Notes under the pieces: generated by a model | Told to the model about the DNA's origin: nothing | Database searches by the model: none | The model's input: only the letters and a program-made list of their open reading frames with translations | Program-made: the position numbers and the translations under genes | Part shown: positions 2,077-26,264 of the stretch, piece after piece | Layout: every line of letters starts with the position of its first letter | Numbering within the stretch: position 1 is the stretch's first letter | Assembly: GCA_016203755.1 (NCBI GenBank) | Contig: JACQMD010000096.1 | Coordinates: 1-33,219, forward strand | Direction of reading: 5' to 3' | From: Candidatus Roizmanbacteria bacterium | Lineage (GTDB): Bacteria; Patescibacteriota; Microgenomatia; GCA-001788215; 2-01-FULL-40-14 | Length of the DNA: 33,219 nucleotides

Positions 2077-4086
<2,010 letters not shown>

Positions 4087-7550: not shown

Positions 7551-8375
7551 ATGAGTATTCGAATAGATGGCAAAGCTCTTGCCGATGAAATCCTGACCGG
7601 TCTTAAACAGCGCGTGGCTGCTCTTCCTGTCCGGCCCATTTTGGCCGTTATTCAGATTGGAGAAAACCCTTCCTCGCATTCATATATTAGACAAAAAGAG
7701 AAAGTCGCACGGCTGGTGGGGATAGGTATCAAACAGTTCAAATTTCCCGCGCGGGTATCTTTCCAGACAGTTGCCGAAAAAATCACTCAGCTCAATGAAG
7801 ATCCCGCCATTACGGGAGTAATCATTCAGCGACCATTGCCGGCGCACTTATCTTCACATTCATTTATAAGTGCCGTTGCGGCAAAAAAAGATGTTGATGG
7901 TTTTCATGAAAAATCTCCGTTTATCCCCCCGATTTCACAAGCAATTACTCATATTCTTTCCGTTATCCTTCAAACAAAATCCCTTCGTATGGCGCTGCGG
8001 AACAAAAAAATAGTCCTTGTTGGCCGCGGAGAGACAGCGGGTAAACCGATTGGTGAAACATTGTCGAAACTGAATATTCCCGTCATCCAGGTGAACAGTG
8101 TCACACGCAATAAAGAAGAATTTTACAAAGAAGCGGACATTATCATCTCATGTGTGGGGAAGCGGGGAGCGGTGAAAGGGGCTCAGGTAAAACCGGGAGT
8201 AATGCTGATTGGAGTAGGCATCGAACGGGCAGATGAAAAACTGGTGGGAGATTATGATGAGGGAGATATCAAAGATAAAGCTTCGTTTTATACTCCAACC
8301 CCAGGTGGAACAGGACCTTTGAATATTGCGTACCTTCTGAGTAACCTGGTAAGCGCTGCAGAAAAGTCGACTTGA
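7551..8375 (+). CDS. folD: bifunctional 5,10-methylene-tetrahydrofolate dehydrogenase / 5,10-methenyl-tetrahydrofolate cyclohydrolase
   Basis: 274 aa. Motifs seen: IDGKALADEI, SHSYIRQKEKVARLVGI, VIIQRPLP, VDGFH, VLVGRGETAGKPIG, TPTPGGTGPLNIAYL. Confidence 0.92.
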   Translation: MSIRIDGKALADEILTGLKQRVAALPVRPILAVIQIGENPSSHSYIRQKEKVARLVGIGIKQFKFPARVSFQTVAEKITQLNEDPAITGVIIQRPLPAHLSSHSFISAVAAKKDVDGFHEKSPFIPPISQAITHILSVILQTKSLRMALRNKKIVLVGRGETAGKPIGETLSKLNIPVIQVNSVTRNKEEFYKEADIIISCVGKRGAVKGAQVKPGVMLIGVGIERADEKLVGDYDEGDIKDKASFYTPTPGGTGPLNIAYLLSNLVSAAEKST

Positions 8376-8400
8376 CAAAGTAGTTCTTTTACGATATTCT
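8372..8400 (+). promoter_or_regulatory. TTGACA-17-TATTCT promoter for the Phd/RelE operon; ATG 9 nt after the -10 (leaderless-type)
   Basis: ttgaca at 8372-8377 (overlaps the folD stop), 17-nt spacer, tattct at 8395-8400, then aaagtacgt and the ATG at 8410. No SD is visible. Confidence 0.45.
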
Positions 8401-8409: not shown

Positions 8410-8682
8410 ATGATACAGGATGTACTCGGTATAAAAGAATTTCAGTCAAAACTACCACTCATTGCACGAACAATCAATCAGGTTGGAGGTCATTATGTGG
8501 TTACCAACAGAACAAAACCTTCGCTTGTGGCTATTCCCTTTAGCGATTATCAGGAGATAGAAGATATATTGCTTGAGCTTAATTCCCCGGATGTACAAAA
8601 CGATATTAAAAAGGGGAGAGAGGAATATAAAATGCGAAAAACGAAGAAATTTCGTCCGTTTATAGAATCTTTGGATGAGTAG
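8410..8682 (+). CDS. type II antitoxin, Phd/YefM family
   Basis: 90 aa. Contains HYVVTNRTKPSLVAIPFSDYQEIEDIL, typical of Phd/YefM. It overlaps the downstream toxin gene by 8 nt. Confidence 0.75.
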   Translation: MIQDVLGIKEFQSKLPLIARTINQVGGHYVVTNRTKPSLVAIPFSDYQEIEDILLELNSPDVQNDIKKGREEYKMRKTKKFRPFIESLDE

Positions 8683-8938
8683 CTATACGATTGAAATCAC
8701 CTCAAAGGCACAGAAGGATCTTAAAAAACTTAACCCCGCTATTCGAAGTAGAATAGAAAAAGAAATTCTGAAGCTTGAACTGGATCAAAAGCCGCAGCAG
8801 TTCAAACCACTCATGGGTAGAAAGATAGCACAGTATAGAATTCGAGTTGGTGATTATCGGGTCTTATATGATTTGTATCCTGAAGATAACGTCGTCCTCA
8901 TTCTCCGTATTGGTCATCGAAAAGAAATATATCGGTGA
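8675..8938 (+). CDS. type II toxin, RelE/ParE (StbE-like) family
   Basis: 87 aa. Motifs seen: ITSKAQKDLKKLNPAIRSRIEKEI and YRIRVGDYRVLYDLYPEDNVVLILRIGHRKEIY. Confidence 0.85.
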   Translation: MSSYTIEITSKAQKDLKKLNPAIRSRIEKEILKLELDQKPQQFKPLMGRKIAQYRIRVGDYRVLYDLYPEDNVVLILRIGHRKEIYR

Positions 8939-8950
8939 GAAGAACCATTT

Positions 8951-8979
8951 TTGAGATTGCAGAGTACTTGTGATACTAT
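8951..8979 (+). promoter_or_regulatory. TTGAGA-17-TACTAT promoter upstream of the 472-aa ORFan
   Basis: ttgaga at 8951-8956, 17-nt spacer, tactat at 8974-8979. A 33-nt leader carries a weak aaggta before the ATG at 9013. Confidence 0.4.
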
Positions 8980-9012
8980 GGAGTAGACCGTTCGTTGTTA
9001 ACAAGGTAGAAA

Positions 9013-10431
9013 ATGGCTGCCGAATCTTTTGAACCTACAAGTGCAGATAACTCTCAAGAGAGGGGAGATCGTGTTCTTTCTCAAGATGAACTAGCGAATT
9101 TACTAGCATCTGTGGAGCCAATTCTATTCATCAAAGCCATGGCTTCTTTACCTCCTGAATGGTCTGATCCCGCAATCGACATATTACAAGAGACAATTAT
9201 TCAAGCTGCTCGTATTCCTGAAGACCAAAGACCCTCTGCAATTGCAGTACTTACCACAATAGAAAATACGGGAACGTTAGAAGCATTAGTAGCAGTAAGA
9301 GATTTATTATATACGCTCAGGAATATTAATTCAGAATCATTACCGGAGAGAGATGAGACATTATTTGCCTTTGCAGGGCAGGGAAAAATAAGAAAGGAAA
9401 CACCAGTAGCGGCGCATGCATTATTCTCGCAGGCATTTCCGCTTCACGAATTATCGCCTCAAGCGGATACAGTTATCTCCCAAACACCTGTCATTGTTGA
9501 ACCGGCCCAAGAATCATCGCCGGATCAAAGAACAATGCCGACGACAATACCCTTTCGGGCTAACCTGATAGTACAAACTATATTACAGAGGTTACGAATA
9601 GAACCTACTCTTAATCTAAAAAGAGAAGAAGTTATCGCGGCATCAGGATTAACCAATCCCGACTACAATAGGTTAAATAAGATTATTACTGAGGCACGGG
9701 AACAGTTGAGACAACTTGGAATTAAGTTAGAAAAAATCCCCCCGTTCAATAGAAAAAGGGGTGATAAAACAATATTCGTGGTAGAACCTCTCTCTAAAAG
9801 TGAACTGCAACTACAGCAGGAACCTGCCGAAGAGGTTTCAAAAGAAGGAGTTGACGAAAAGAAAACGAGTTATGATCTGGTAATATTTCGTAATACTCTT
9901 GGTGTCTACAGACGTTTACTGAAGGCAGTGCACCGAAGAGATTCTCAACCCGTCTCACCCGAACAACGCATTTCCTACCAGGCATCGTTAATGGTTTTAG
10001 AAAAATTTAACCTTTCTGTTGATGACTGGGAACTGCTTGGCGAAACGTTTAGTGTTCCCCTTAGAACTGACGAATCATATTCACTGGCGTCACTCTCCTA
10101 TGTGATAGCTTATTTGAAGACACCTCGACCGAAAGAAGTCAAACAGGAAGCAGAAGTCGCTGCCTCAGCATTTTCACTCATGAAGCAATGGGTACAGAAA
10201 AAAGTTGAAGAAATCAAAGAGGTGAGAAAACCAAAGGAAAAACAAGAAAACTCTCAAACAGCTGAGCAAAATGTGCTGGTTGAACCTGAAGACACGAGTC
10301 TCGAGATACCAGAAGATGAATCTCTCAGCGACTATGATGAGTCTGTACAACCAGCGCCGGAACAGGAGGAGAATGAAGGAGAACAAGAGAATAATGATTT
10401 CAGATTCCCCGAGCACGGGGAGAATAAGTAA
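9013..10431 (+). CDS. hypothetical protein (472 aa) with a winged-helix-like module and a strongly acidic C-terminal tail
   Basis: Long ORF with no overlapping competitor. aa ~183-259 (nt 9559-9789) resemble an OmpR-type wHTH (LKREEVIAASGLTNPDYNRLNKIITEAREQLRQLGIKLEKI...TIFVVEP). The tail reads EPEDTSLEIPEDESLSDYDESVQPAPEQEENEGEQENN. Confidence 0.6.
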   Translation: MAAESFEPTSADNSQERGDRVLSQDELANLLASVEPILFIKAMASLPPEWSDPAIDILQETIIQAARIPEDQRPSAIAVLTTIENTGTLEALVAVRDLLYTLRNINSESLPERDETLFAFAGQGKIRKETPVAAHALFSQAFPLHELSPQADTVISQTPVIVEPAQESSPDQRTMPTTIPFRANLIVQTILQRLRIEPTLNLKREEVIAASGLTNPDYNRLNKIITEAREQLRQLGIKLEKIPPFNRKRGDKTIFVVEPLSKSELQLQQEPAEEVSKEGVDEKKTSYDLVIFRNTLGVYRRLLKAVHRRDSQPVSPEQRISYQASLMVLEKFNLSVDDWELLGETFSVPLRTDESYSLASLSYVIAYLKTPRPKEVKQEAEVAASAFSLMKQWVQKKVEEIKEVRKPKEKQENSQTAEQNVLVEPEDTSLEIPEDESLSDYDESVQPAPEQEENEGEQENNDFRFPEHGENK

Positions 10432-10434
10432 AAA

Positions 10435-11400
10435 TCATCTCATACCAACTAACGTTTCATGCATAAGGGGATATGCAATCTTACCTTTCAGAAAGAGGTG
10501 AGGGATGACCTTTCTACTAAATTCAGTGAAGCCTTGTTGACCAAGCCATTGAAGCAGAGGAATATAGGCTTCATCTGTCTTCACAGAACCAAATCCTCCA
10601 AGTACCACGGTATGAACACAAGGCAAATCTTCAATGAAATCAAATACTTTCAAAAGATTTGGTAATCCTCCGTATACTGCATGTCCGCCTATATTTGAAA
10701 TGGCAACCCCAATCTGTTCTCGAGGAAATGTTTTAGACTGACGTACTTCATCAGCTGTTTGACAGTATACAGTCGACTTTTCACCAACATTGTTTTGCTC
10801 CAGGTTTCTATCTGCTTGTCGTGCATACCATCCATTTTGCTCAATTAAGTGTGCACGTGCTGCACCATTTGAAAGCGCGGCCAGAGCAAGTATACCGCCT
10901 CCTGAACCAATATCAACAATCTCCTCGTCATTCATTCGATCGGATACTGAATCTAGGGCATAGAGGGTGGCTTCCATAAAACCTCTAAATGTTGCCTGCA
11001 TAAAATCATATGGTAAATCAGAAAGCCAAATGGGACTTGGTGTTATTTTCCGAATAATATTTGGGGTAGCACGCCGTCTATTTTCTTGACTATCGGCTAT
11101 AACAAATCGATCACCTACTTGCAGGAGTGAAACGGGAGCAGAAGAGAGAATTGGTTGTGAACCGGCGGCAATAAATTCATGTATATAACGTTTGTAATCA
11201 GCTTGGGAACGGCATCCCATACGCAGTGGCACTTCAGTTTGTAATTCGGTATCTAGGAAGCATCCAACAGTCGGCGGGGCAGCAAATGCAGTAAGTTTCA
11301 GGGCACGATAGAGCCGTGCATCGCGTCGTCCTAATGCTTGTTCACTTATTGGCTGCCGCCATTGATCCGGAATATTGTGGGGTGAGACAAATTCGTTCAT
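10435..11400 (-). CDS. class I SAM-dependent methyltransferase (PrmA-like core) with an unrecognised N-terminal domain
   Basis: 321 aa. Motif I: IVDIGSGGGILALAALSNGAARAHLIEQN. A post-motif GVAISNIGG resembles the D-x-x-x-ANI of PrmA-type enzymes. I saw no (D/N)PP(Y/F) DNA-methylase motif. The stop is only 3 nt from the convergent 9013..10431 stop. Confidence 0.7.
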   Translation of the reverse strand: MNEFVSPHNIPDQWRQPISEQALGRRDARLYRALKLTAFAAPPTVGCFLDTELQTEVPLRMGCRSQADYKRYIHEFIAAGSQPILSSAPVSLLQVGDRFVIADSQENRRRATPNIIRKITPSPIWLSDLPYDFMQATFRGFMEATLYALDSVSDRMNDEEIVDIGSGGGILALAALSNGAARAHLIEQNGWYARQADRNLEQNNVGEKSTVYCQTADEVRQSKTFPREQIGVAISNIGGHAVYGGLPNLLKVFDFIEDLPCVHTVVLGGFGSVKTDEAYIPLLQWLGQQGFTEFSRKVIPHLFLKGKIAYPLMHETLVGMR

Positions 11401-11463
11401 ACGAGGAGAAAGTATAGCATACGAATATGATTAAACCTTGCCAAAAAGTAGAGCAGAAGAGTA

Positions 11464-13014
11464 TTACGCGTTCAATACTTCTGTTGAAGTAGTTGAAGCA
11501 ACATCTGAAATAGTAAATTCCGCTTGTCTGACGGCTCGTATTTTATCCTCAGCTTCTGCAAGTATTCGTTGAGTGGACACGATTTGAGCTAGGAAGCTAT
11601 CGAATTCTTCTCGTTGCAGACGAGATATTCCTTCCAAATATGAATCAGAGGTTATCCCTAAAACTAACTGATCAACTTGTGATAATGCGCCTTTAACGCC
11701 TGCTACATCACGGCGGACCGTTTTTTCTGTTTTAAGTTCAAGTCCTCGTTCTTTTTCACTGTAAACTCTCTCTAGTCGTGCAAGTGTATCTGCACTAGTT
11801 CTCATAGACTTTTCTCTTAGTTCTTCTTCGAGAGCATCTATTTCTTCCCGATCTTTTCTCCTTGCTTCTTCAAGATACTCTTCTTGTGCTTGTTTACGAT
11901 TCGCCTCTGCTTGCTGAGAACTTGCTAATGCTTCTTCCAAACTTCGAATGGCGTCTTCATACTTAGTTTTCTTATTTTCAAATTCTTCTTCAGGCTTCCG
12001 GACCGCTTTTAGAAGTGCTTCATTGGCAGCCCTCAGGACTTCATTTGCTTGTGAAAGTTCAGTAATCTTAGATTGTGCAATAGCAAGTTTATCTGTATGT
12101 GCTAATTGCATACTCTCTATTTCACGAGTTTTTTTAACTTCAAGAATTTTAGTAGACGCTTCAACAGCAGCTGTTGCTCTTTTCTCTGTCTCTTCATGTA
12201 CTAATTCTCCCATACGCTCTTTTAATAGCCTATTATTGAGACGTGCAATGTAGAGATCCAGTTCTTGTGGTGTAGAAATAGCACCTGTTACAATTTCATG
12301 CACTGTTTCCTGGACTAACTTATAGTCATAAACACCTTCTAATGACTCTTCCAAATGAGCAACCTTACCCGGTATGGGCAGTCTTAGTTGTGCAATTTTA
12401 TTTAGTGTACGAAGACTCCAAAACTTTGCCCTTTCCTCACTGCTTGTTATGTCCTGTTCAATTCGCGAGAGAAGAGAAGAAGGAATATACCCTATGTCAA
12501 CTTTTGTAGTTATGGTCGTTTTATCCTCGCCATAGCTACGAGCAATTTCGCGCGCTTTAAGCCCTTTACGGTTAAGATCTGCAAGCTCGCGACATTCCTG
12601 AATAGTCCCCCACGTATGGATACCATTTGCAGACAGTCTCATGAGCGAAGCAGTCTTATCATCCACTTCGCCATGAGAAACAGCTTGCACAGAAGTAATT
12701 CCTTGATTTTTTGCTGCCATGAAACGTGCAGCCCCATCAATAACTGCAACTGTACCATCTTCAAGGACTCGTACTGCTGGAGGATGAATGGGAACACCAC
12801 CTAGTTGGTCAATGTTTTCTTGTAAACGGGCAAGTGAATCTGGAGTATGCCTTTTTTGACTAGTTTCATCGATGAAAACTTTGCTTGGGTCAACATCCAG
12901 TAACTCGACTCGTCCTGACCCCATGCCATCCTCTGGACTAAAATTGATAAACTGTTCCTCTGTTAAGATTTCGTGGTTTAACATAGTCTCATTTCTGCAA
13001 GTATAGCAGATCAT
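11464..13014 (-). CDS. ParB/Srx N-terminal domain + HTH protein with a ~200-aa charged coiled-coil C-terminal half
   Basis: 516 aa. VELLDVDPSKVFID...SLARLQENIDQLGGVPIHPPAVRVLEDGTVAVIDGAARFMAAKNQGITSVQAV is collinear with the ParB N-domain, followed by an HTH-like LKAREIARSYGEDKTTITTKVDIGYIP. The C-terminal half is heptad-like and E/K/R/A-rich. The ATG at 13012-13014 directly abuts the upstream gene's TGA (TGAATG); an alternative start is the ATG at 12984. Confidence 0.75.
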   Translation of the reverse strand: MICYTCRNETMLNHEILTEEQFINFSPEDGMGSGRVELLDVDPSKVFIDETSQKRHTPDSLARLQENIDQLGGVPIHPPAVRVLEDGTVAVIDGAARFMAAKNQGITSVQAVSHGEVDDKTASLMRLSANGIHTWGTIQECRELADLNRKGLKAREIARSYGEDKTTITTKVDIGYIPSSLLSRIEQDITSSEERAKFWSLRTLNKIAQLRLPIPGKVAHLEESLEGVYDYKLVQETVHEIVTGAISTPQELDLYIARLNNRLLKERMGELVHEETEKRATAAVEASTKILEVKKTREIESMQLAHTDKLAIAQSKITELSQANEVLRAANEALLKAVRKPEEEFENKKTKYEDAIRSLEEALASSQQAEANRKQAQEEYLEEARRKDREEIDALEEELREKSMRTSADTLARLERVYSEKERGLELKTEKTVRRDVAGVKGALSQVDQLVLGITSDSYLEGISRLQREEFDSFLAQIVSTQRILAEAEDKIRAVRQAEFTISDVASTTSTEVLNA

Positions 13015-14628
13015 TCAAGTGCCTAAAGAATGATCTTCTACCCATTCATCCTCTGTTTCATACCACTGATCCTGTATTGTTTCAAATCTCACTTGTACCA
13101 GATCGAGAAGATAATCACGTAAGTCCTGTTCATAAACTCTTACCTCTGCTTTGCTCAGCGGAATGTTTTGACCGACATACTGAATGATATCTGAGATTGC
13201 AACCTTTTTGCTATCGGCATCATTTTTCTGTTCCTCCGTCAAAAATTCCCGCTCTCCATCCTGAATAAACTGATCAGCAAGATACGCAAGATCACGAAGC
13301 GTTAAGTCATCGAGCGCCTGCAGCTTGATAAACCTTTCAATCTCTTCAATTTCTCTGAGCCGATATGAGGATGCCTCTGGATCATATTCAAGGAGCATTG
13401 CCATGGCAGTATACTTTGTATGAACAGCCAGACTGTTAATGCCCCAGTCTATACCCATTTTATCCGCATATTCCTGCGCGGCCATGTGGAGAATACTGGG
13501 ACGTGATTCCTGACGGGTATCATGCCAATTTTCTTCATTGTATTCGTGTAATAAGTCTGACGAATATTTATCAATTAACCCATATATACCACGGCTCTCA
13601 TATGTTTTCCGAATACTACTGGGGTGTCTCGTCGCTGCTCCTCCATAGCTTTCCAGGTATTCAACGGCTTTTCGTCGCGTTTGAATAGCAAGATAATACG
13701 CCAGACTTCCGACAAGATGTGCATTTACGAGTAGGTCTTCCGGCAATTCTTTATTTTGCATAAATAATCGCTGAGCTTCTTCATAGGGTTCAATACACGA
13801 GGGCATACGGACAAGGTTCAAATTACTTTCTTGCCGTACATTGCCCTGTGAATCAGGACGAGAACGGTGCCGAGTCGTTTCAATACAGATCAACGCACTA
13901 GGCAATCGCCTATCAAATACTTTCTGTATAGGAATACCACCATAGATACATGCCTCCTTCATTTTTTTCCTCCCTGCTAGTCTCCCTAACCCAAGCACCA
14001 TACGTCGTATCGGAAATCCTTCGTGCACTTCATATTCCTCTTTATTACCAACAGAAACCGTTAGTATTCTCGGCATACGAAGTACCAGTGGTTTGGTACG
14101 AAGGAGTTCAGCAACAACATGGAGATTTTCTGTATTTTGAATCGCTGTTTGTGTCTCGTTAAAAAACGGCGGTTCACGACCCTCGGCATTGTAAAGAGCC
14201 GCTGAGAGAATTAATTTTCGTATCCGTAACTCATTGTTTCTTTCCCGGTATTCATCAGTTTCAGGAATTTCTGCCCCCAAACTATGAACAGTACTGGCAA
14301 AATTGGCTAAAATTGCTTGCACTTGTTCAGTATCCCGCTTTGCAGGATTGTTTTCCATGTAGACCGTTAATGCGCGGATTGCGGTCAGATGGGCAAATGG
14401 CGGGAAATGAGGATTAACTGCAATACTATTGACCGAGAGAAGAAAATCATTTAGATCAAATTCTGCTGTGCGAATGCTCCGACGAAGATCGAGTGCTTGA
14501 TTGGCTAGTTTTCTATCCTGTGGTGCATCAGGCATACAAACCACGGTATCAAGATAGGTATTAAAAAATTTCTCGAGATTCTCTCTTCGTTCAGGGTCGA
14601 TGTCGATAAGTCGGTCTGGAATATTCAT
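13015..14628 (-). CDS. hypothetical protein (537 aa), first gene of the 537aa-ParB-like operon
   Basis: Long uninterrupted ORF with no motif I recognise. It is translationally abutted to the ParB-like gene. Confidence 0.65.
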   Translation of the reverse strand: MNIPDRLIDIDPERRENLEKFFNTYLDTVVCMPDAPQDRKLANQALDLRRSIRTAEFDLNDFLLSVNSIAVNPHFPPFAHLTAIRALTVYMENNPAKRDTEQVQAILANFASTVHSLGAEIPETDEYRERNNELRIRKLILSAALYNAEGREPPFFNETQTAIQNTENLHVVAELLRTKPLVLRMPRILTVSVGNKEEYEVHEGFPIRRMVLGLGRLAGRKKMKEACIYGGIPIQKVFDRRLPSALICIETTRHRSRPDSQGNVRQESNLNLVRMPSCIEPYEEAQRLFMQNKELPEDLLVNAHLVGSLAYYLAIQTRRKAVEYLESYGGAATRHPSSIRKTYESRGIYGLIDKYSSDLLHEYNEENWHDTRQESRPSILHMAAQEYADKMGIDWGINSLAVHTKYTAMAMLLEYDPEASSYRLREIEEIERFIKLQALDDLTLRDLAYLADQFIQDGEREFLTEEQKNDADSKKVAISDIIQYVGQNIPLSKAEVRVYEQDLRDYLLDLVQVRFETIQDQWYETEDEWVEDHSLGT

Positions 14629-14701
14629 TAGCTTGTTTAACTATGTTAAAATAAAACTTCACTATACATTATATGTGCAATAAAACTATTATATCTTATC
14701 T

Positions 14702-15970
14702 ATGTCAGCAGAACACAAAAATCAATTTAGTCTTCGAGATACACTCAGCCAACTCAATGAGGGGAGAGATGTGGTGCTTCCGCCAGCTGACGATTTGCTA
14801 GACTCGGTATACAAAGAAGTTGATAGTTTATTAACTCTCCCGCAAGAACACCGTCTGCCTCCTCGAGATCTTGAGGATTATAGTCTTGGCATTGAAACGC
14901 TTCGATCTACAGCAGATCAATATCGTTTTGTGGAACAAGCAAAGCAAGAGACACAACAGTTAATGGCTCAACGAGCAAGTATTTGGTCGCAACGAACACA
15001 GATTCAAAATCCTGTCCTTACACTGCCATCTCGCGAGGACAAAGAGCGGCTGGCTGAACTGGCAACTCAAGAGGAAACAATTAATAGTCGCTTAGAAGAG
15101 TTGGTCTCTGAGTTGACCAATCGCTTCGATGTTTCAGTTGATCCAGATACCGGAGTAAACGTCGAAGAGCTTTCAACCGCAACACAAGATGAACTTCTCG
15201 GGCTATTGGGACAAAATTTAGGTTGGCTGACACTCTTATCTCAGAAAGCACGTAACCCTCTTGCTACCACACCTGAAAAGCCAAATGTTTCAATAACCAT
15301 TGAGCGTTTGGCCGGCGCTGTCACACTTGACGATGCAACGAGAGAACTGGTCCAACATCCCATCGATACGAGTCAAATCATTGCTCCAGGAATTTCGGTT
15401 TCATCAACAGGTATCACCATGCAACGCCAGGAAATTACTGATATTCCACGTCCCTCGGCATTTGAGCGCTGGGCACCATTTTTCGGCGTAGAAGTTCCGA
15501 GCAGAAAAGATGATTCTGCTGCGTACAATCGTTATGAAAATCAGGTGCGCAAGTACCAAGCAGTTGCACAAGCAATTGGTGATTTCTACTATGAGGAAGG
15601 TAAACCACGGCCATCCCGAATAGAACTAATCTCTCATATTACAGCCTTTACCCTTGAACATGCACTCCACTACACCAAGAATGCGACATTTGATCTCTCT
15701 CTAAGAGGAGAAAAAACACTATTTGAACCAATACGACTCCAACGGATTATTGCTGCAGTTGCTCGCGTAGTTGAGCTTAAGGCTTGTGAAGATGAGAAAA
15801 GGAATGCTGCACCTTTTGTACACCACGCTGAATATGCTGACCTTGCTAAACAACTGCTTACGATAACTGACGCTTCTTTTTTGGGAAAAGAAATGGGCAG
15901 TATCTTAGTAGTAGAAAATGGGAAGGCAAGACTTGCAGATGATATTAGTGATTCATTACAACAACCATGA
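14702..15970 (+). CDS. hypothetical protein (422 aa), paralogous over its N-terminal ~185 aa to the next gene
   Basis: Long ORF with a 4-nt ATGA overlap onto the downstream gene. The block AKQETQQLMAQRASIWSQRTQIQNPVLTLPSREDKERLAEL aligns with TAQETHQLVSELSTIWETRATIQKPSIVLYLPEEEERLKSL of the 866-aa protein. Confidence 0.65.
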   Translation: MSAEHKNQFSLRDTLSQLNEGRDVVLPPADDLLDSVYKEVDSLLTLPQEHRLPPRDLEDYSLGIETLRSTADQYRFVEQAKQETQQLMAQRASIWSQRTQIQNPVLTLPSREDKERLAELATQEETINSRLEELVSELTNRFDVSVDPDTGVNVEELSTATQDELLGLLGQNLGWLTLLSQKARNPLATTPEKPNVSITIERLAGAVTLDDATRELVQHPIDTSQIIAPGISVSSTGITMQRQEITDIPRPSAFERWAPFFGVEVPSRKDDSAAYNRYENQVRKYQAVAQAIGDFYYEEGKPRPSRIELISHITAFTLEHALHYTKNATFDLSLRGEKTLFEPIRLQRIIAAVARVVELKACEDEKRNAAPFVHHAEYADLAKQLLTITDASFLGKEMGSILVVENGKARLADDISDSLQQP

Positions 15971-18567
15971 CACCTGAACAGCCGAAAGAAATTAATTTAT
16001 ACACCGTATTTGACGATATGAACCAGGGAGTTCCTGTTGAACTTCCTGGTCCTGAACTCATCGAAGAAACTGTTCGTGATGCTATGGAAACCTCCGATGA
16101 GCGAACAGAATTTCATAAAGAACTTCTGACTCAAGAAGATGTTTTGTATGCTTCTCAAAGTGTAAATTCACTGTTGGAATTAAACCGGGAATATGAAAAT
16201 CTTGATCGAACCGCACAGGAAACTCATCAGCTTGTTTCTGAACTGAGTACTATTTGGGAAACTCGAGCTACAATACAGAAACCTTCGATCGTTCTCTACT
16301 TACCGGAAGAAGAAGAGCGGCTTAAAAGCCTGGAGGGACGCGAGGCGGCAATACATGAACAGTTGACCGCCACTGCAAACAGGCTCTTAAATTTCGGTGG
16401 CATTGATCCTGAAGTCGCAAAACGGGTTGATGTGCTAGAACTCCTTTCCCAGTCACAAGTGAACATTTTGCGACAGCTGGAACAGGCGCTTAACTGGATT
16501 GACGGAATAGTCAACACAGCACTCGTTGGTAATTATATGAGATCGGTAAATAAACAGTTTGCTGACCGGTGGCAACTGAAACAACGTTTGCCACCATCAG
16601 AAGGAGAACAGGAAACGGAAGCCGGTCAGTGGGAGTGGTTTATCGGTACCAGGCCACCGAAAGAAAATAAAACACAGCGTGAACAGTTTGATGAACGTGT
16701 TCGAGAATATGAGAAGCTTATAAGCGACGTTAAAGGGGCATTTAAACTTGACGACGAGCATATTTCAGATACAGAAATTCTACAACTGCTTCCTGGACTC
16801 AACGCACTGCAACTAGCTCACTTTGGAAAATACGGATCATTTGACACGGGGACAGATGAGAAGACAGATAGAGAGACGGAAGTCCTTTCAGCAAGATCGG
16901 AACGAAGAGTAGGTGTTATGCTTGCTGCCATAGAACGATTCCTCACACTTAACAAACGAAAAGAGGAACAAACCGACGAGCCTCTAGAGATTATAGAACC
17001 AGCATGGTTCATTGAGCAGGCGATATTGATGATATCACCTCACTTCGATTTCGCTTCGCACTACGCAAGCATCGTTAATCAAACAGGACGGTATACACCG
17101 ATTGCACAAGAGTTTGATACGGTCATGGCAATGCTGACCGACTATAAAACTAAACTGGGGGATCTTAGAACTCCTTACATTATTAAACCCTCCACTAAAA
17201 TTGAGGGCGCGTATGAACTGCCAAACGGTGAAGTCGTGACTGGCAAACAAGCAGTTTCCGTCCTTGAACGACTCATGCAAACCAGCGCGGAAAACCGCTG
17301 TTCAGTCGAAGACTTACGAATGCATGTTTACCCTCATCTGGAACCAGATGCCGGAAAGGCAGGAATCCATCGGCGCATTTCTGTTCTCAGAACAAAAGGT
17401 GTACCTATACCACGGGTAGATATGTCCGATCCAAATGCCGGATATTATATAGATAGAGAAAATCCATTGGTAGAACAGCCAAACCATGCTACACAAGACA
17501 CACAACCTCACGGGAAACCAGACAAACCACCGCTCCCTTTTCAGCCAGGAAGTAAAAAACTCGAACTAGCCACCTCACTGGCCAACTGCTCAGAAGCCAA
17601 TCCTATCAGTAGAGACGAATTGATTAAGTTGCATTATGAAGGTGATCCACTAGGGCGGAGTCATCTTAGCGTACAACTTTCGAAGATTAGACAAACATCC
17701 GGAGTCATCCTCCATGAAGATGAAGGTGGACTCTGGCTGGAAATTATAGGCGCAAAACAAGTACAATCCACTGGAGAAGGACAACCTGAAAAACCTACGT
17801 ATGCACAGAAACTGGAACAAAATATATATTCCATTAAACAAAAACTGGAAGAGGAGACAAATAAATCAAATGCCCGATTAACAGAAAAGGAGACTACAGA
17901 AATTGTCAGTCAATGCATTGATGCAGACATTATCACGCCTGGAGTACGGAAAGCTATAGAAAATATGTTTCTCGCTGCCCAAAAATTAAGAGCTTCGCTG
18001 CGATCTGACCGAAAAGGGGAACATTTAAGAGGAGCAACGTTTTTCCAGAGACATGTTGATGTATTAGCGAGTTTATTAAACGAAAAAGGAGATGTCGACA
18101 CATTAAGTGATGATCAGATCATTACGATACAGTCTGCAATCAACGAATCGCTTGCATTATTCTTATCGTCTCGGATGGGTGGAGATGATCGCTCATATGA
18201 TATTTTAGCTCTCAATGCGACACTGAATGCAGTTCTGTGGATACGAAAAAGTTTCCCGGAAGCAACTATTCGTTCAGTAGCGCCACGAGTCTATTATCAT
18301 GACAAAATTGGCATGCAAATAATCCTTGATACTCATGGTGAGTACGACGAAGAAGTTACTGTGTATGTAGCCAAAAAAGGTATAGCGAGAGATAAGATTG
18401 AACACTATGAAATTAATCATCGGGAACAAATTTATGAATATATTCGTGATCAAACATGGAGAGAAACATTCTCAACGGCTTTCGACTACGTCCAGAAAGC
18501 AAAAAAACCAAACGATCGATTTATGATCATCCTTGCCCCGAATGCACTTCCATCTATTACCAAATAA
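15967..18567 (+). CDS. hypothetical protein (866 aa): paralogous N-terminal domain plus two tandem OmpR-type winged-helix-like modules
   Basis: Long ORF. wHTH-like 1, nt 17254-17451: VSVLERLMQTSAENRCSVEDLRMHVYPHLEPDAGKAGIHRRISVLRTKGVPIPRV...GYYI. wHTH-like 2, nt 17554-17745: KLELATSLANCSEANPISRDELIKLHYEGDPLGRSHLSVQLSKIRQTSGVIL...GLWLEI. Confidence 0.7.
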   Translation: MTPEQPKEINLYTVFDDMNQGVPVELPGPELIEETVRDAMETSDERTEFHKELLTQEDVLYASQSVNSLLELNREYENLDRTAQETHQLVSELSTIWETRATIQKPSIVLYLPEEEERLKSLEGREAAIHEQLTATANRLLNFGGIDPEVAKRVDVLELLSQSQVNILRQLEQALNWIDGIVNTALVGNYMRSVNKQFADRWQLKQRLPPSEGEQETEAGQWEWFIGTRPPKENKTQREQFDERVREYEKLISDVKGAFKLDDEHISDTEILQLLPGLNALQLAHFGKYGSFDTGTDEKTDRETEVLSARSERRVGVMLAAIERFLTLNKRKEEQTDEPLEIIEPAWFIEQAILMISPHFDFASHYASIVNQTGRYTPIAQEFDTVMAMLTDYKTKLGDLRTPYIIKPSTKIEGAYELPNGEVVTGKQAVSVLERLMQTSAENRCSVEDLRMHVYPHLEPDAGKAGIHRRISVLRTKGVPIPRVDMSDPNAGYYIDRENPLVEQPNHATQDTQPHGKPDKPPLPFQPGSKKLELATSLANCSEANPISRDELIKLHYEGDPLGRSHLSVQLSKIRQTSGVILHEDEGGLWLEIIGAKQVQSTGEGQPEKPTYAQKLEQNIYSIKQKLEEETNKSNARLTEKETTEIVSQCIDADIITPGVRKAIENMFLAAQKLRASLRSDRKGEHLRGATFFQRHVDVLASLLNEKGDVDTLSDDQIITIQSAINESLALFLSSRMGGDDRSYDILALNATLNAVLWIRKSFPEATIRSVAPRVYYHDKIGMQIILDTHGEYDEEVTVYVAKKGIARDKIEHYEINHREQIYEYIRDQTWRETFSTAFDYVQKAKKPNDRFMIILAPNALPSITK

Positions 18568-18572
18568 CAAAT

Positions 18573-18603
18573 TTGAAATGTTATTGCGTTTTTCTGATAC
18601 AAT
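18573..18603 (+). promoter_or_regulatory. possible promoter TTGAAA-19-TACAAT, ATG 12 nt after the -10
   Basis: ttgaaa at 18573-18578 and tacaat at 18598-18603. The 19-nt spacer is suboptimal. ATG at 18616. Confidence 0.3.
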
Positions 18604-18615
18604 AGAATTATCATC

Positions 18616-20508
18616 ATGACCCGCGATGAAGGATTACAACCTCCGGATGCCCAGCACTTTACCGTTGCCACACCTACACCGGATAAAACAGTTCTTGCTT
18701 TTGCTGGCGCACTCCGTCATCAAGAAGGAGTTCCTGAACAATTACTCAATATTCTCCCTGTATCCGCTCCAGAGACTACCGTCGTCACTGCAGAATCCAA
18801 TTCAGAATCCAGACAGAGATCGCCAATACTGCAACACATTACTACCACTCTTCATACAACCAGTGAATTTGTAGAAACTATGGATGAATCGCCGGAATCT
18901 GTTGAACAGCTCAATTTTCTTTTAAGCTCCTTATACTTTGCAGGGCAATCATGGCTGATGAGTACTAAAGTAAACTTGCCTCCATCCGGTCAAGTACCAA
19001 AAATAGAACCCGTACAATCTGATGTTGCGCGAGTGACAACAACTCAGCCACCAGCCCCAACCGATATATCTCCTGAGGAAGGAGAAGGATCGAAAAGAAC
19101 CTATACATTTGATGAATTCCATCGTGAGGTGATACCACACTTCTCACGGGCTACTGCCAGAAAGCGATTTAACGAAGCATACACTACACTTGGATATTCT
19201 CAGCCTGGAACAGGCAACCGTATTGAAATGACAGCTGAAGAATTTGAAGAGCTCAAGGGTAGAGTAGATACCACACGCAGAACAGGCGGGAGACGGGCTA
19301 AACAAGTTGTCGATGAACCAAACGAGCCACTTGGTGACGGTGACCCGGACGGGGATGATCCAGATCCTGACCCTGACTCGGCAGATAGAGTTAACGCAAA
19401 TAAAAAAGAAATTAAAGCAGCTACACAAATGGTAGTTACTATTCACAGTACGTTAGATGAACTTACCCCCGTACTACAAGGAATACCAGAAGGAATGAGG
19501 TTTGTTATACCTAGTGCCGCCAATAGAATTATGAGTGATCTCGCACTCGATGGCTCCAATAGCAAAATTGAAATTGAAGAACTTCATCAGCTTGGAATTG
19601 CCTATGGTCATACAGCAATCAATTATGTAAGTCTTCTCCCACGGGATCTAGCCAGCATTATTGTATATAGAAAAGCGCAATTGAATGGAGAAACACGATC
19701 AGAAGAAATTGCTCGGACAATAGCCAATGCCGATAGTTATTTAACTGCTGAGGAATTAGGATTACTGAATTCTACTCGACTCGGAAATCCGCTGGAAGAC
19801 GTTGAGCAACCTGATTCCTTAGTAATACAGTTTCTAAAAGAAAAGTTAGGAACCGATTCAATTTTTCATGTGATGGAGTTTTGCAATTTTCTTGCACAAG
19901 AAGCTCGTTATAAAACTATGGAGTGGATCGAAGGAAATGAAAATGGAGAGGAGTTGTCAACAAATTTTACTGATCTTCTTGATTCATACATAGTACGTTT
20001 TCAGGAAGAATTAGGACGGAATCCAAATATTTCTGCTCATACGCATGATGCGGTAAACCAAAGAACAGAGCAAGAACAAGACTCATATCAAACAGCATGT
20101 AATACGATAAAAGAGAGAACGCTCGTAGTTGCCGCTCAATTTTCTAGCGAATTTCTCACAATATATAAGAGCACACAAAAAGCAATACAGGAAAGCCGTG
20201 AACTAAGAGCAAGGTTTCCTCTTGCTGCTAACTTGTTTGAGAGCCACCCGCTCATTGGACGACTGCGTAGCTTAGCAAAAAGAATAAAACTGGTCAGTGA
20301 TAATCCTGAACTAGAAAATATACGATTAGCAGCTAACTTGTTGATTTCAATGAATGAAGATCTTTATAGACTATTAGTCACTGGTCTTGAAAAAACTGAG
20401 ACCGATACTGCCAGAATCTTAAAAGATGCTAATTCAATAGCCCGTATTAATCAAACCTTAGACCTCTATCGCCAACTTCAGGAATCAACTCCAAAAGCAG
20501 CTGCGTAG
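18616..20508 (+). CDS. hypothetical protein (630 aa) with an Asp/Pro-rich linker
   Basis: Long ORF with no recognised domain. Low-complexity GDGDPDGDDPDPDPDSAD lies near nt 19330-19385. The C-terminal half looks helical. Confidence 0.65.
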   Translation: MTRDEGLQPPDAQHFTVATPTPDKTVLAFAGALRHQEGVPEQLLNILPVSAPETTVVTAESNSESRQRSPILQHITTTLHTTSEFVETMDESPESVEQLNFLLSSLYFAGQSWLMSTKVNLPPSGQVPKIEPVQSDVARVTTTQPPAPTDISPEEGEGSKRTYTFDEFHREVIPHFSRATARKRFNEAYTTLGYSQPGTGNRIEMTAEEFEELKGRVDTTRRTGGRRAKQVVDEPNEPLGDGDPDGDDPDPDPDSADRVNANKKEIKAATQMVVTIHSTLDELTPVLQGIPEGMRFVIPSAANRIMSDLALDGSNSKIEIEELHQLGIAYGHTAINYVSLLPRDLASIIVYRKAQLNGETRSEEIARTIANADSYLTAEELGLLNSTRLGNPLEDVEQPDSLVIQFLKEKLGTDSIFHVMEFCNFLAQEARYKTMEWIEGNENGEELSTNFTDLLDSYIVRFQEELGRNPNISAHTHDAVNQRTEQEQDSYQTACNTIKERTLVVAAQFSSEFLTIYKSTQKAIQESRELRARFPLAANLFESHPLIGRLRSLAKRIKLVSDNPELENIRLAANLLISMNEDLYRLLVTGLEKTETDTARILKDANSIARINQTLDLYRQLQESTPKAAA

Positions 20509-20553
20509 TATCAATCGATCCTCATGTCTTCCTGACGCCGTATCGACGTAATC

Positions 20554-20582
20554 TTGACATATGTTAACAAATAATTTACACT
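20554..20582 (+). promoter_or_regulatory. TTGACA-17-TACACT promoter for the Phd/PIN operon; ATG 9 nt after the -10 (leaderless-type)
   Basis: ttgaca at 20554-20559, 17-nt spacer, tacact at 20577-20582, then acgtttaat and the ATG at 20592. Confidence 0.5.
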
Positions 20583-20591
20583 ACGTTTAAT

Positions 20592-20906
20592 ATGTCTTTA
20601 ATAAACACTAATACCATTTCTGCACGAGAAATACAGAGGAACTATCGCCAGATATTCAACCGGGTGAGAAAAACAAATAAGCCTGTTGTTGTCATCAGTA
20701 ATAACAAACCACAGGCAGCTATCGTCAGCATGGATATGCTGGGAAAATTTAACCAGCTACAGCAGGAAGCTGATGCGTTTAGGCTCATTGACGCAATCCG
20801 CAACAGAAATGAAAAGAAAAATGAGGAATCGGCATACAAACAAATAACAGAGGAAGTTGAGCAAGTTCGTAAAAAGCGGTATGAAAAAGCCGAAGGCAGT
20901 CGTTGA
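20592..20906 (+). CDS. type II antitoxin, Phd/YefM-like
   Basis: 104 aa. ISAREIQRNYRQIFNRVRKTNKPVVVISNNKPQAAIVSMDMLGKF is typical of a Phd/YefM N-domain. It lies immediately upstream of, and overlaps, a PIN gene. Confidence 0.7.
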   Translation: MSLINTNTISAREIQRNYRQIFNRVRKTNKPVVVISNNKPQAAIVSMDMLGKFNQLQQEADAFRLIDAIRNRNEKKNEESAYKQITEEVEQVRKKRYEKAEGSR

Positions 20907-21321
20907 CACCAACCTTCTCGTCAACGGTATCATTGTTCCGAAAGGAAATCCTTACTTTCTTCTTGAAGCATGGCGCAAAGGATTGTTTACGTTAGTAACT
21001 TCCCAGCAACAACTTGATAAACTTGAAGAGGTGTTAACACGTCCTAAGATTTATAAGACTTACCACCTTTTGCCAAAAGACATCAGTATAATCATACAAC
21101 TGATTAATCAGAAAGCTGTTATTGTACTCCCATCAAAAACATCCCCGGTACTTGTTAGGGATTCAAAAGATACGTTTGTTATTCAAACAGCACTTGCTGG
21201 AAAAGCAGATTATATTGTATCAGGAGATAAGGATTTACTTGTACTAAATAATGACGCGAAATTGACACCATTGTTCATTCTTACCGCATCAGAGTTCCGT
21301 AGTAGTATAATAACAATATGA
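20881..21321 (+). CDS. PIN-domain toxin (PIN_3 / TIGR00305-like)
   Basis: KAVVDTNLLVNGIIVPKGNPYFLLEAWRKGLFTLVTSQQQLDKLEEVLTRPK ... DSKDTFVIQTALAGKADYIVSGDKDLLVL. I prefer the ATG at 20881 (MKKPKAVVDTN) over the ORF-track start at 20857. Confidence 0.8.
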   Translation: MKKPKAVVDTNLLVNGIIVPKGNPYFLLEAWRKGLFTLVTSQQQLDKLEEVLTRPKIYKTYHLLPKDISIIIQLINQKAVIVLPSKTSPVLVRDSKDTFVIQTALAGKADYIVSGDKDLLVLNNDAKLTPLFILTASEFRSSIITI

Positions 21322-21749
21322 ACATCAACTGGCTTCTGGTATTTGCCGGGCTTGGAGCAATTTTATTGGAACTTTTTATCGGTGTGCAAACAGGATTTGA
21401 TCTGGTTCTCATCGGCATTGCACTCATGGTCGGCGGGGGAGTCGGGGAGTGGAGCGGCAACGGAATGCTGGGAGTAAGCATCACGGCAATACTGTCATTT
21501 CTTTATATTTTTGTCGGCAGGCAATATATCAAACAAAAACTTGCCGTTCCAACAAAACACACCAACGTTGAATTGATAATCGGCAAGACCGGACGGGTAG
21601 AAAAGACTATTACCCCTCACCGGGCAGGGCAAATGAAGATCGGCAACGAAGTCTGGCGCGCTACCGCAGATACCAAAATTGAAGCGGGGAGCATGGTAAA
21701 AATTGAGGAAGTAAGCGGAGTTTCCGTACGTGTGGTAAAATACAAATAA
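21318..21749 (+). CDS. nfeD: NfeD-family membrane protein (C-terminal OB fold)
   Basis: 143 aa. Hydrophobic N-terminal half, then GKTGRVEKTITPHRAGQMKIGNEVWRATADTKIEAGSMVKIEEVSGVSVRVV. The ATG overlaps the PIN stop (ATGA). Confidence 0.85.
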   Translation: MNINWLLVFAGLGAILLELFIGVQTGFDLVLIGIALMVGGGVGEWSGNGMLGVSITAILSFLYIFVGRQYIKQKLAVPTKHTNVELIIGKTGRVEKTITPHRAGQMKIGNEVWRATADTKIEAGSMVKIEEVSGVSVRVVKYK

Positions 21750-21843
21750 ATAACTGAATAACACAATAACGTAATAACTAAATGAAAAACACCTATATGG
21801 ATTTTATAATTTTGTTATTCTGTTATTAAATCATTTAGTTATT
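21746..21843. repeat. second copy of the ataactga-word palindromic element (same family as 4087-4195), between nfeD and the SPFH gene
   Basis: It shares two identical 15-mers with the gyrB-proximal copy: aaataactgaataac (21748-21762 = 4099-4113) and aataacgtaataact (21765-21779 = 4108-4122). The right arms share atttagttatt (21833-21843 = 4165-4175). Confidence 0.7.
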
Positions 21844-21851
21844 CCGCGATC

Positions 21852-22733
21852 ATGGCAGAACTTTTTAACATATTCTTAGCAGTGATTGCAATTGTTGCCC
21901 TGACACGTTCGCTTCGCATTGTCAATCAATACGAAAAAGGCATCATTCTCCGCCTAGGTAAATTTCGCGCCATTGCCGATCCAGGAGTGACGTTTGTTTT
22001 CCCGTTCATTGAAAACATGATCAAAGTCGACATGCGCGAGCGTGTCATCAACGTCATGCCACAGGAAGTGATTACCCAGGATAACGTATCAGTAGTAGTT
22101 GATGCCGTGATTTATTATAAAGTTACCGATCCGGTAAAAGCAGAGTTTGAAATTGAAGATTTTGATTTGGCGGCAACGACATTGGCTCAAGCCAATCTTC
22201 GCAATATCATCGGCGATAAAACGCTCGACCAGACGCTCACTGCGCGCGACGTGATTAATGTAAACCTGCGCGATGTCCTGGACGAAGCCACAGATAACTG
22301 GGGCGTAAAAGTGACCCGTGTTGAAGTGCAAAAAATTGACCCGCCGCAGGATATTGTAGACTCAATGAGCAAACAGATGAAAGCAGAACGCGAAAAACGC
22401 GCGGCAATTCTCACTGCTGAAGGATTTAAACAGAGCAATATTTTGGAGGCAGAAGGGAAAAAACAAAAAGATATTCTGGAAGCAGAAGGAGCAGCCAAGG
22501 CACGAGTGCTGCGAGCTGATGCTGAAGCACAGGCCGTTCAAAAAGTAGCAGAGGCTGCCGAGAAATATTTTAAAGAACGCGCACAACTTCTCAAGAAGCT
22601 TGACGTCTCACAGGAAGTACTTTCAAAAGGCACCAAATGGGTACTTCCCGATAAAGCTGATTTAGTAAACGTGTTAAATCTTTCAGATGATACAGTCATC
22701 CCGATCCAAAAACGGAAATCTCCTGCTGCCTAG
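21852..22733 (+). CDS. SPFH/band-7 (stomatin-like, YbbK/QmcA-type) protein
   Basis: 293 aa. N-terminal TM, then [18 protein letters not shown]...[36 protein letters not shown]...[20 protein letters not shown]...[16 protein letters not shown], followed by an EAEG-repeat coiled coil. Confidence 0.92.
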
Positions 22734-23792: not shown

Positions 23793-24286
23793 AGTCGAGT
23801 ATATTCTGCAAGAATATACGAGTTGAACCAATCAAAGAATGATTTACGAGGATCATCTATTTGTACCTTAGGATTATTGAACTCTATTCTCACAATTGCA
23901 AATTCGTCTTTTGCGGTCATTCTTTTAGTATCGAAAGCATGCATTGCAATTCCACCATCATGAAAAGGAATTAAATCAGAAGGCAACTGTGCAAACCGGG
24001 TTTCTCGAGCAGTATCAATACTCTCTTGTAAAGGTATCTCTCCCTGAGCATTATCGTCATCTTTTGTTCCAAATAGCTCCTCGCTTCCTTCGAAAAGTAA
24101 TGCACCATTACTAATGAGCGTGAGAAACTCTCGAAACGATTGAGGCAATACAACTCCTTTTTGTTTCTCGTATGCTGCTAATTCCTCTTTGGAGACCGTC
24201 GGAAATAAACTATTTCGCACATCTGTTTCCAATGCAACCTTTAATTGTTGATAATCCGATAGAGTCAAACCGCTTTCATACTTCAT
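23789..24286 (-). CDS. SMI1/KNR4 (SUKH-1) family protein, putative immunity protein
   Basis: 165 aa. VSKEELAAYEKQKGVVLPQSFREFLTLISNGALLFEGSEELFG is the characteristic SMI1_KNR4 N-terminal signature. 4-nt ATGA overlap with the upstream gene. Confidence 0.8.
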   Translation of the reverse strand: MKYESGLTLSDYQQLKVALETDVRNSLFPTVSKEELAAYEKQKGVVLPQSFREFLTLISNGALLFEGSEELFGTKDDDNAQGEIPLQESIDTARETRFAQLPSDLIPFHDGGIAMHAFDTKRMTAKDEFAIVRIEFNNPKVQIDDPRKSFFDWFNSYILAEYTRL

Positions 24287-25829: not shown

Positions 25830-25849
25830 AGTTTTGTATAACGTATAAT

Positions 25850-25929: not shown

Positions 25930-25977
25930 AACTTGTGCGACATTGTCAAGTGGCCGATTCAATGCTATGCTCACAAT

Positions 25978-26235: not shown

Positions 26236-26264
26236 CCATTAATCATGCATTTTCTCAAAAACCC

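Follow-up and report, generated by a model that had tools for sequence, protein, structure and literature searches.

Flexible genomic islands and replacement hotspots between core genes occur in many bacterial pangenomes. Here we compare with such islands a block of seven long open reading frames (ORFs) that lies between folD and nfeD in a metagenome-assembled genome (MAG) of Candidatus Roizmanbacteria, a member of the Microgenomates within the candidate phyla radiation (CPR). The window, that is, the whole stretch of DNA that was analyzed, is a complete contig of 33,219 bp and encodes proteins MBI4130323-37. The block resembles flexible genomic islands in its conserved core flanks, in a content that differs between close relatives, in its deviant composition, and in the presence of selfish toxin-antitoxin (TA) modules. 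It differs from them in that its cargo consists entirely of CPR-restricted orphans, with no surface or glycosylation genes and no recognizable defense genes, and in having no integrase or att sites. We consider it probable that this stretch represents a composite of accessory DNA at a gene replacement hotspot just downstream of folD, and not a single integrated phage or plasmid. The seven ORFs are designated by a letter followed by their length in amino acids (aa), as A472, B321, C516, D537, E422, F866, and G630, and the related contigs or loci that were compared with the window are labeled L003 to L008 and L025 to L029.

The conserved backbone around the block reads gyrB-ppa-gyrA-folD, then nfeD-SPFH, and then xer-DUF5656, and these flanks are conserved in L003, L005, and L025 to L029. 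The order gyrB-ppa-gyrA-folD is present in L003, L025, and L026 to L029, and the left end of L005 holds a C-terminal fragment of folD. In L003 and L025, nfeD and the SPFH gene occupy the same position as in the window, with protein identities of 63% for NfeD and 83 to 84% for SPFH. What lies between these anchors differs from genome to genome. L003 (Roizmanbacteria GCA_024654245.1) carries a minus-strand D gene encoding 554 aa and a plus-strand F gene encoding 942 aa between gyrB-ppa-gyrA-folD and nfeD-SPFH. In L005, the folD fragment is followed by a D gene of 550 aa (minus strand) and an F gene of 658 aa (plus strand), and then by xer-DUF5656-YebC, as on the right flank of the window. L025, which was found by scanning GTDB genomes for NfeD, and L026 to L029 have a different content, consisting of A418, A467, an ORF of 113 to 114 aa, and a minus-strand gene X798 (X), in that order, between folD and nfeD-SPFH, with xer further downstream. 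In this cassette A418 is a homolog of A472, A467 is weakly A-like (A'), and X is an unrelated orphan, of 807 aa in L025. At least 24 contigs, drawn from several samples, show the L025 arrangement. L003 and L025 are 92% identical in GyrA, 85% in FolD, and 95% in SPFH and yet have no gene in common between folD and nfeD. Because such close relatives share no cassette gene, the site after folD is best described as a replacement hotspot that holds alternative cassettes. A preliminary description of this stretch, made from the letters alone, had raised the question of whether folD is directly followed by nfeD and SPFH elsewhere. The same flanks were indeed found in L003 and L025, with other cassettes between them rather than direct adjacency, and the seven genes are not kept in place across many genomes, since L003 and L025 differ at this very site. 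Other Microgenomates nfeD-SPFH loci had neither folD nor any of the cassette families upstream.

The block is a composite of an A gene, a D/F pair (so that both cassette types are represented), E422, B321, C516, G630, and two TA modules. Of the six families, three (A, D, and F, with E counted together with F) occur at the folD-proximal locus in other Roizmanbacteria, in differing combinations and never with TA modules; B321, C516, G630, E422, and both TA modules were seen only in the population from which the window derives. Between genomes with 52 to 84% identity in their backbone proteins, identity falls to 26 to 32% in A, D, and F. The cassettes of the relatives begin 2 to 4 nucleotides (nt) after the folD stop codon. 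Exchange of the cassettes would proceed via homologous recombination in the conserved flanking genes. An all-against-all hhalign comparison, which asked whether the cassette families are diverged paralogs of each other, revealed no relationship other than that of E with F and a weak one of A with A' (21%). Independent Logan contigs from run SRR12113384 match the window at 99.6 to 99.7% identity over 11939-14426, which includes the junction of D537 and C516, and over 18591-20526, which includes G630, so those parts are not an assembly artifact.

The features of the region are collected in Table 1. The analysis bore out the coordinates and lengths of the seven long ORFs, their bracketing by a Phd/RelE and a Phd/PIN module, and the tight junctions that had been reported for them, namely, TGAATG at 13017-13012 on the minus strand, ATGA at 15967-15970, and convergent stops at 10431 and 10435 that are separated by 3 nt. 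The minus-strand transcription unit runs in the order D537-C516-B321, with B321 last, and the plus-strand unit runs E422-F866-G630, with G630 last. It was also correct that only two of the seven proteins have a recognizable fold, B321 (a PrmA-like S-adenosylmethionine [SAM] methyltransferase) and C516 (ParB-like); A472, D537, E422, F866, and G630 had no match in Pfam, NCBIfam, PADLOC, PHROGs, or the sequences of the PDB. Transmembrane segments are absent from all seven proteins. Six of the seven are strongly acidic, with isoelectric points (pI) of 4.75 to 5.2 and net charges of -21 to -37, and B321 has a pI of 6.2. As a class, the cassette proteins are acidic, cytoplasmic, and devoid of transmembrane segments.

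Table 1. Genes and intergenic features between the two anchors of the hotspot, with positions in the window
Feature	Position	Strand	Description
folD	7551-8375	+	Left anchor of the hotspot, in the backbone run gyrB-ppa-gyrA-folD
TA1 antitoxin, Phd/YefM-like	8410-8682	+	Pfam PhdYeFM 21.2 bits, below the cutoff of 29.8
TA1 toxin, ParE/RelE family	8675-8938	+	Pfam ParE_toxin 5e-15, 56.3 bits, above the cutoff of 23
A472	9013-10431	+	472-aa orphan, A family
B321	10435-11400	-	321 aa, SAM-dependent methyltransferase
C516	11464-13014	-	516 aa, ParB-like
D537	13015-14628	-	537 aa, D family
D537-E422/F866 divergent intergenic region	14629-14701		73 nt, divergent promoters presumed
E422	14702-15970	+	422 aa, paralog of the N-terminal part of F866
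F866	15967-18567	+	866 aa, F family
G630	18616-20508	+	630-aa orphan
TA2 antitoxin, Phd/YefM	20592-20906	+	Pfam PhdYeFM 2.8e-8, 33.9 bits, above the cutoff of 29.8
TA2 toxin, PIN (VapC-like)	20857-21321	+	NCBIfam TIGR00305 2.2e-20, 73.1 bits, above the cutoff of 29.15
nfeD-SPFH	21318-22733	+	Right anchor of the hotspot

The preliminary description had judged the block by eye to be more AT-rich than the flanking gyrB, gyrA, and folD genes. This is clear at third codon positions, where the GC content (GC3) of the seven genes is 0.27 to 0.35, compared with 0.38 to 0.49 for 17 backbone genes, with no overlap between the two ranges (Mann-Whitney p = 1.8e-4); the cassette GC3 is about 0.11 under that of the backbone. 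In bulk GC the difference is weak, with 42.3% for the block, 44.9% for the left flank, and 42.5% for the right flank, and tetranucleotide correlation did not single out the block. Cassette genes also have a lower GC3 than their backbone neighbors in L003, in L025, and less strongly in L005. In the AT-rich L004, the GC3 of the neighboring genes overlaps the values of the D/F pair.

A low GC3, together with TA modules at both edges, the presence of a ParB-like gene and a methyltransferase gene, and the confinement of B321, C516, G630, and both TA modules to one population, would be expected if 8410-21321 were a single mobile element that had integrated, for example a degraded plasmid, a prophage, or a remnant of an integrative and conjugative element, that is stabilized by its TA modules. 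The ParB-like protein would then be a relic of partition, and the methyltransferase would serve an antirestriction or epigenetic function. We regard this alternative as quite improbable. Pfam and NCBIfam revealed no recombinase or integrase in 8410-21321, as had been reported, and no relaxase, replication, capsid, or portal gene is present. The tyrosine recombinase of the window lies outside the block, 3.6 kb away at 24927-25829, and is an Xer-type backbone gene in a syntenic setting (xer-DUF5656-YebC), 73 to 76% identical to its counterparts in L005 and L025. The borders show no tRNA or tmRNA gene, nothing at the Rfam gathering threshold, and no att-like repeats other than short imperfect ones of 15 to 28 nt that are at chance level, and the cassettes that start 2 to 4 nt from the folD stop leave no space for att sites. 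No relative of A, B, C, D, F, or G was found in IMG/VR, in the INPHARED phages, or in the PLSDB plasmids (E422 was not searched separately), and the PHROGs yielded ParB-like families for C516 only. Moreover, other genomes have A, D, and F at this site with neither TA, ParB, nor methyltransferase genes, and the PIN gene overlaps the start codon of nfeD. The absence of border tRNA genes, repeats, and Rfam matches, the syntenic nature of the sole recombinase, the lack of phage and plasmid relatives, and the tight junctions together disfavor a single integrated phage or plasmid and would rather point to exchange via homologous recombination in the flanks. Of the earlier proposal, what stands is an accessory block of orphan genes that is bracketed by TA modules and has a deviant codon composition; its reading as one integrated element, or as a single system of seven genes with the TA modules as its limits, is not supported.

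The two TA modules are ordinary. Like described type II systems (ParDE/RelBE-like and VapBC-like, with Phd/YefM antitoxins), both have the antitoxin gene before the toxin gene, overlapping genes, and promoter-like sites of their own, and nothing in them is unusual or depends on the seven genes. The genes of the left module (TA1) overlap by 8 nt, and a promoter scan placed a promoter-like site at 8372-8400; the family of its antitoxin is tentative, as the PhdYeFM score falls under the cutoff. The ORFs of the right module (TA2) also overlap, with a promoter-like site at 20554-20582. The stop codon of the PIN gene and the start of nfeD have 4 nt in common (21318-21321), which couples TA2 tightly to the backbone nfeD-SPFH operon. 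TA1 was absent from L003, L005, and L025, and TA2 was absent from the loci of the relatives. Both would be independent selfish or stabilizing insertions at the edges of the block.

Within the block, the genes for D537 and F866 make up a divergently transcribed module that is conserved and self-contained and also occurs in L003, L004, and L005. Those three contigs encode full-length homologs of D537, with 26 to 30% identity and always divergent from an F gene; the 554-aa protein of L003 is 27% identical over the full length, with an E value of 1e-44. Residues 186 to 281 of D537 are strongly conserved, and the C terminus carries the motif VRFETI(R/Q)D. The D/F spacer is short in the relatives, at 39 to 69 nt, with patchy sequence similarity. 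A promoter scan detected promoter-like hexamers on both strands of the intergenic region in the window, and alignment of the D/F intergenic regions did not produce a convincing common operator. The pair was also considered as a transposon, and this was ruled out, since the L003 pair lies 2 nt from the folD stop and there is no space for terminal repeats around it.

Pattern scans for the D family in GTDB genomes and JGI metagenomes yielded nothing. In a k-mer-prefiltered search, the D-family profile returned its own cluster only and missed the known D relatives, showing that this search is not sensitive here; F866 likewise returned its own cluster only. An exhaustive HMMER search with a profile of F866 and E422 against 1.84 billion representatives revealed seven relatives only. 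The C-terminal domain of F also exists as stand-alone proteins of 262 to 336 aa in L006 (just upstream of nfeD), L007, and L008. Among the seven members, one glutamine and two prolines (Q, P, and P) are the sole invariant residues of this domain, which suggests that a noncatalytic binding role is likelier than an enzymatic one. E422 is an old paralog of residues 1 to 410 of F866 (blastp, 2.6e-13), and the match of the F-family profile to E422 spans the entire protein. E422 overlaps the start of F866 by 4 nt, and no duplication of the E422 type was found in L003, L004, or L005.

Two observations were made at loci with the stand-alone F domain. In L007, two orphans of 530 aa and 297 aa are encoded in tandem (630-4169) upstream of the stand-alone gene, and their 176-aa N termini are 80% identical; this F-related locus has thus undergone a duplication or a fission recently. 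A 556-aa ORF in L006 shares a 71-aa segment with this tandem orphan locus (hhalign, 92%).

AlphaFold2 models of D537 and F866 were built from shallow family alignments. The D537 model has a mean predicted local distance difference test (pLDDT) score of 62, with a confident helical-repeat N-terminal domain (residues 10 to 180) and a poorly modeled segment at residues 186 to 281. The F866 model has a mean pLDDT of 60. Its N-terminal long-helix domain (residues 10 to 185) is confident, its C-terminal helical plus alpha/beta domain (residues ~610 to 866) mostly has a pLDDT of 84 to 94, and its middle is poor. An OmpR-like winged-helix pattern recurs by eye in an alignment of F- and A-family members, and residues 530 to 593 of F866 are modeled with a helix-helix-helix-hairpin topology at a pLDDT below 50. 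Foldseek comparison of the two models with the PDB gave no match at an E value of ≤0.001; D537 had none at <0.3, and no member of the D family had a Pfam or PDB match. Against BFVD, F866 had a single hit at ≤0.001, with a TM-score of 0.08. The top hits for both models were generic, being helical or coiled-coil proteins whose TM-scores did not exceed about 0.3 when normalized to either chain. The hits of F to MukF and of D to HEAT proteins, including Ycg1, are at noise level and were rejected as evidence.

C516 contains a ParB/Srx N-domain and a helix-turn-helix (HTH) at residues ~27 to 200. It matched Spo0J of Thermus thermophilus (PDB 1vz0) in phmmer at 1.9e-6 over residues 17 to 181 and Noc at 6e-3, in a region that spans the N-domain and HTH, as well as a ParB-like PHROG at 7.9e-9; the Pfam ParB_N score of 18.4 bits is below the cutoff of 26.3. 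The protein resembles chromosomal ParB proteins (Spo0J/Noc) in these two domains and differs from them in several ways. The CTP-binding arginine box is degenerate, reading GAARFMAA for GERRxRA (dGAARfmAA where Spo0J reads aGERRyrAA), from which a loss of CTP binding is predicted. In place of the short C-terminal dimerization domain of chromosomal ParB, C516 has about 300 residues that are charged and look like coiled coil, judged from the sequence. There is no ParA neighbor, a Walker-type ParA being absent from the window, and no parS consensus occurs in the 33-kb window within 3 mismatches. Also unlike chromosomal ParB, C516 shares its transcription unit with an orphan and a methyltransferase gene. 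The start of C516 is ambiguous, either an ATG at 13014 directly after the D537 stop or the GenBank start at Met11 (position 12984; 506 aa), and an independent Logan gene call supports the downstream one. The k-mer-prefiltered search with C516 returned only C516 itself, and a scan of JGI metagenomes returned nothing.

Another interpretation is that these are vertically inherited, fast-evolving core genes, with the D/F pair, and possibly C516, forming for instance a chromosome organization or nucleoid module of Roizmanbacteria beside gyrB and gyrA. The A, D, and F genes do keep their place beside gyrBA-folD in several genomes, the conservation of D extends along the entire protein, the D operon includes a ParB-like gene, and the Foldseek hints for F (MukF) and D (HEAT proteins including the condensin subunit Ycg1) would fit such a module. 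Those hints have probabilities of at most 0.10 and TM-scores below 0.2, however, and the missing parS and ParA, the strongly acidic nature of the proteins, and the recovery of only seven F relatives among 1.84 billion representatives are not what such a module would lead one to expect. In addition, the cassettes of L003 and L025 are mutually exclusive in genomes with 92% GyrA identity, so neither set is essential at this site. We therefore find it rather unlikely that the genes belong to the core, and a replaceable accessory region remains the reading that we prefer.

B321 has a PrmA/PRMT-like Rossmann domain at residues ~140 to 250, preceded by an N-terminal region of 140 aa without assignment. 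The class I SAM methyltransferase core is present, with matches to Pfam PrmA, Cons_hypoth95, and MTS at residues 145 to 237 and motif I as VDIGSGGG, and the structures of PRMT and CARM1 match weakly. PrmA itself has a similar SAM-binding Rossmann core, and GenBank annotates B321 as PrmA; B321 differs from it in the unrelated N-terminal 140 residues and in its accessory genomic context. The match to Pfam PrmA (4.3e-9; 36.7 bits, cutoff 22) covers only positions 151 to 234 of the 296 in the profile, and the scores are far under the cutoffs of the NCBIfam PrmA equivalogs, at 39 versus 188 bits for NF001785 and 32 versus 183 for TIGR00406. On account of the low equivalog score and the partial profile match, the GenBank name, 50S ribosomal protein L11 methyltransferase, is not justified. 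No relative of B321 was found in the related loci.

ParB-fold proteins are often fused to SAM methyltransferases, in bacteria and in phages (PMC12704722). C516 and B321 show the same pairing of a ParB-type protein with a SAM methyltransferase; they differ from the published associations in that they are separate, adjacent genes with no fusion and no phage context and in that B321 is PrmA/PRMT-like and not an N6 or N4 DNA methyltransferase.

The methyltransferase also bears on whether the block, or the D/F core with the methyltransferase and the ParB-like protein, is a new antiphage or antiplasmid defense system in a hotspot that resembles a defense island. B321 weakly matches mad2 of PADLOC (2e-7, over the SAM-binding region only), close relatives carry alternative cassettes at one locus, the sequences diverge rapidly, and TA modules and a SUKH immunity gene lie nearby. 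Those features are offset by the type of the methyltransferase, which resembles enzymes acting on protein or RNA and not the N6, N4, or C5 DNA methyltransferases, and by the occurrence of D/F elsewhere with no methyltransferase. PADLOC (v2) gave no other match in the window or in the cassettes of the relatives, whose proteins had no Pfam match either, and no nuclease, NTPase, TIR, SIR2, or protease effector domain is recognizable. A dedicated defense system consequently appears unlikely to us, and we return to the composite accessory region in considering the remaining orphans.

A472 is acidic (pI 4.75), with an acidic C-terminal tail, and had no profile or PDB match. A homolog is encoded directly after folD in Roizmanbacteria RIFCSPLOWO2_01_FULL_40_14 (L025, 4200-5447; phmmer 1.1e-37, 32% identity over 395 aa), and homologs are present in at least 24 other contigs. 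Strongly acidic tails that contain aromatic residues form the C termini of the A-family proteins (window, 10300-10431; L025, 5350-5447 and 6780-6909). The tail of A472 reads ...LEIPEDESLSDYDES... and that of the L025 homolog reads ...DLDIPEDEDPYEYLDDD, and the two have in common an IPEDE-like motif, which might mark a protein interaction tail. G630 is an acidic protein and contains a low-complexity linker rich in D and P. It had no match in profile libraries, the PDB, phages, viral contigs, or related loci, and the sole other copy comes from the same population (Logan, SRR12113384).

With respect to function, the D/F pair would be the core of the region, and its two products would cooperate on DNA or on targets bound to it. 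The F protein would probably form dimers and would combine long helices and winged-helix-like segments with a noncatalytic interaction domain at the C terminus, and D would provide a helical-repeat scaffold. The recruitment of a ParB-like protein and a methyltransferase into the D unit suggests a DNA-associated role. An accessory conflict function (defense or anti-mobile element) or a regulatory one would be more likely than housekeeping. Our guess that the region is a DNA-associated accessory or conflict/regulatory module is a tentative one, to be held with considerable doubt.

Several points count against the interpretation given here. The hotspot picture rests on about five independent lineages of MAG contigs, not on closed genomes, and in L004 the D/F pair lies among ordinary metabolic genes and not at folD. 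The low GC3 could reflect a foreign origin rather than relaxed selection, and a single mobile element with unsampled relatives could have brought in B321, C516, and G630 together. As for function, it is purely inferred, and no fold or profile match exists for D or for F. A winged-helix profile searched against the PDB recovered neither OmpR nor PhoB, and Pfam gave nothing for it either. A defense signature, in the form of an NTPase, a nuclease, or PADLOC support, is likewise missing.

Outside the block, between SPFH and xer (22797-24924), there is a second patch of low-GC3 genes that lack relatives in the related loci. It comprises orf331 (+) and orf213 (-), the latter overlapping by 4 nt a SUKH-1/SMI1_KNR4 immunity-like protein gene (23789-24286; Pfam 1.4e-12), and orf213 and the SUKH-1 gene could constitute a polymorphic toxin-immunity pair. 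At the SPFH-xer spot, the relatives have an orphan of 256 or 258 aa followed by two Aminotran_4 fragments (L025 to L029) or by one Aminotran_4 ORF at the end of the locus (L003). Next to xer, the 1.9 kb at 25830-27745 (GC 0.36 to 0.38) lack any ORF of more than 100 aa, an unusual feature in a genome as compact as that of a CPR bacterium. Two parts of this stretch are conserved, 25830-25950, which is 78% identical to L025/L026 over 125 aligned columns and contains an inverted repeat, and ~27002-27060, which is 76 to 81% identical to L025 and L005. Rfam returned nothing for 25830-27745, which could be an undescribed RNA or a regulatory region upstream of xer. Near the left end of the window, two overlapping minus-strand ORFs (514-1353 and 1263-1961) both have FG-GAP repeats and may represent a single gene that was broken in two by a frameshift or by an error in sequencing.

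A large part of bacterial diversity belongs to the CPR, and many genes of these bacteria are uncharacterized. Since hotspots, flexible islands, and TA modules are familiar and CPR genomes are rich in orphan genes, the finding framed in those terms is not very surprising. What is new is three unannotated families (A, D, and F), a D/F pair for which no structural relative could be detected, and a hotspot in the CPR with cassettes made up entirely of unknown genes. An unlikely but more novel reading would be that D and F constitute an undescribed, self-contained, two-protein system of Roizmanbacteria-like CPR that acts on DNA and has folds absent from the PDB, either for defense against mobile elements or as a kleisin/HEAT-like chromosome-organizing pair with a recruited ParB-like loader and a methyltransferase. 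If so, the folD hotspot would be the CPR equivalent of a defense island in which all systems are unknown. If the genes are instead merely poorly constrained and lineage specific, the analysis still corrects the GenBank label of B321 and removes the false lead of an integrated element. In either case the locus offers a concrete, bounded example of how CPR dark matter is organized. The D/F pair is tractable for experiment, and should it prove to be a new DNA-associated or defense system, the hotspot could be mined for more.

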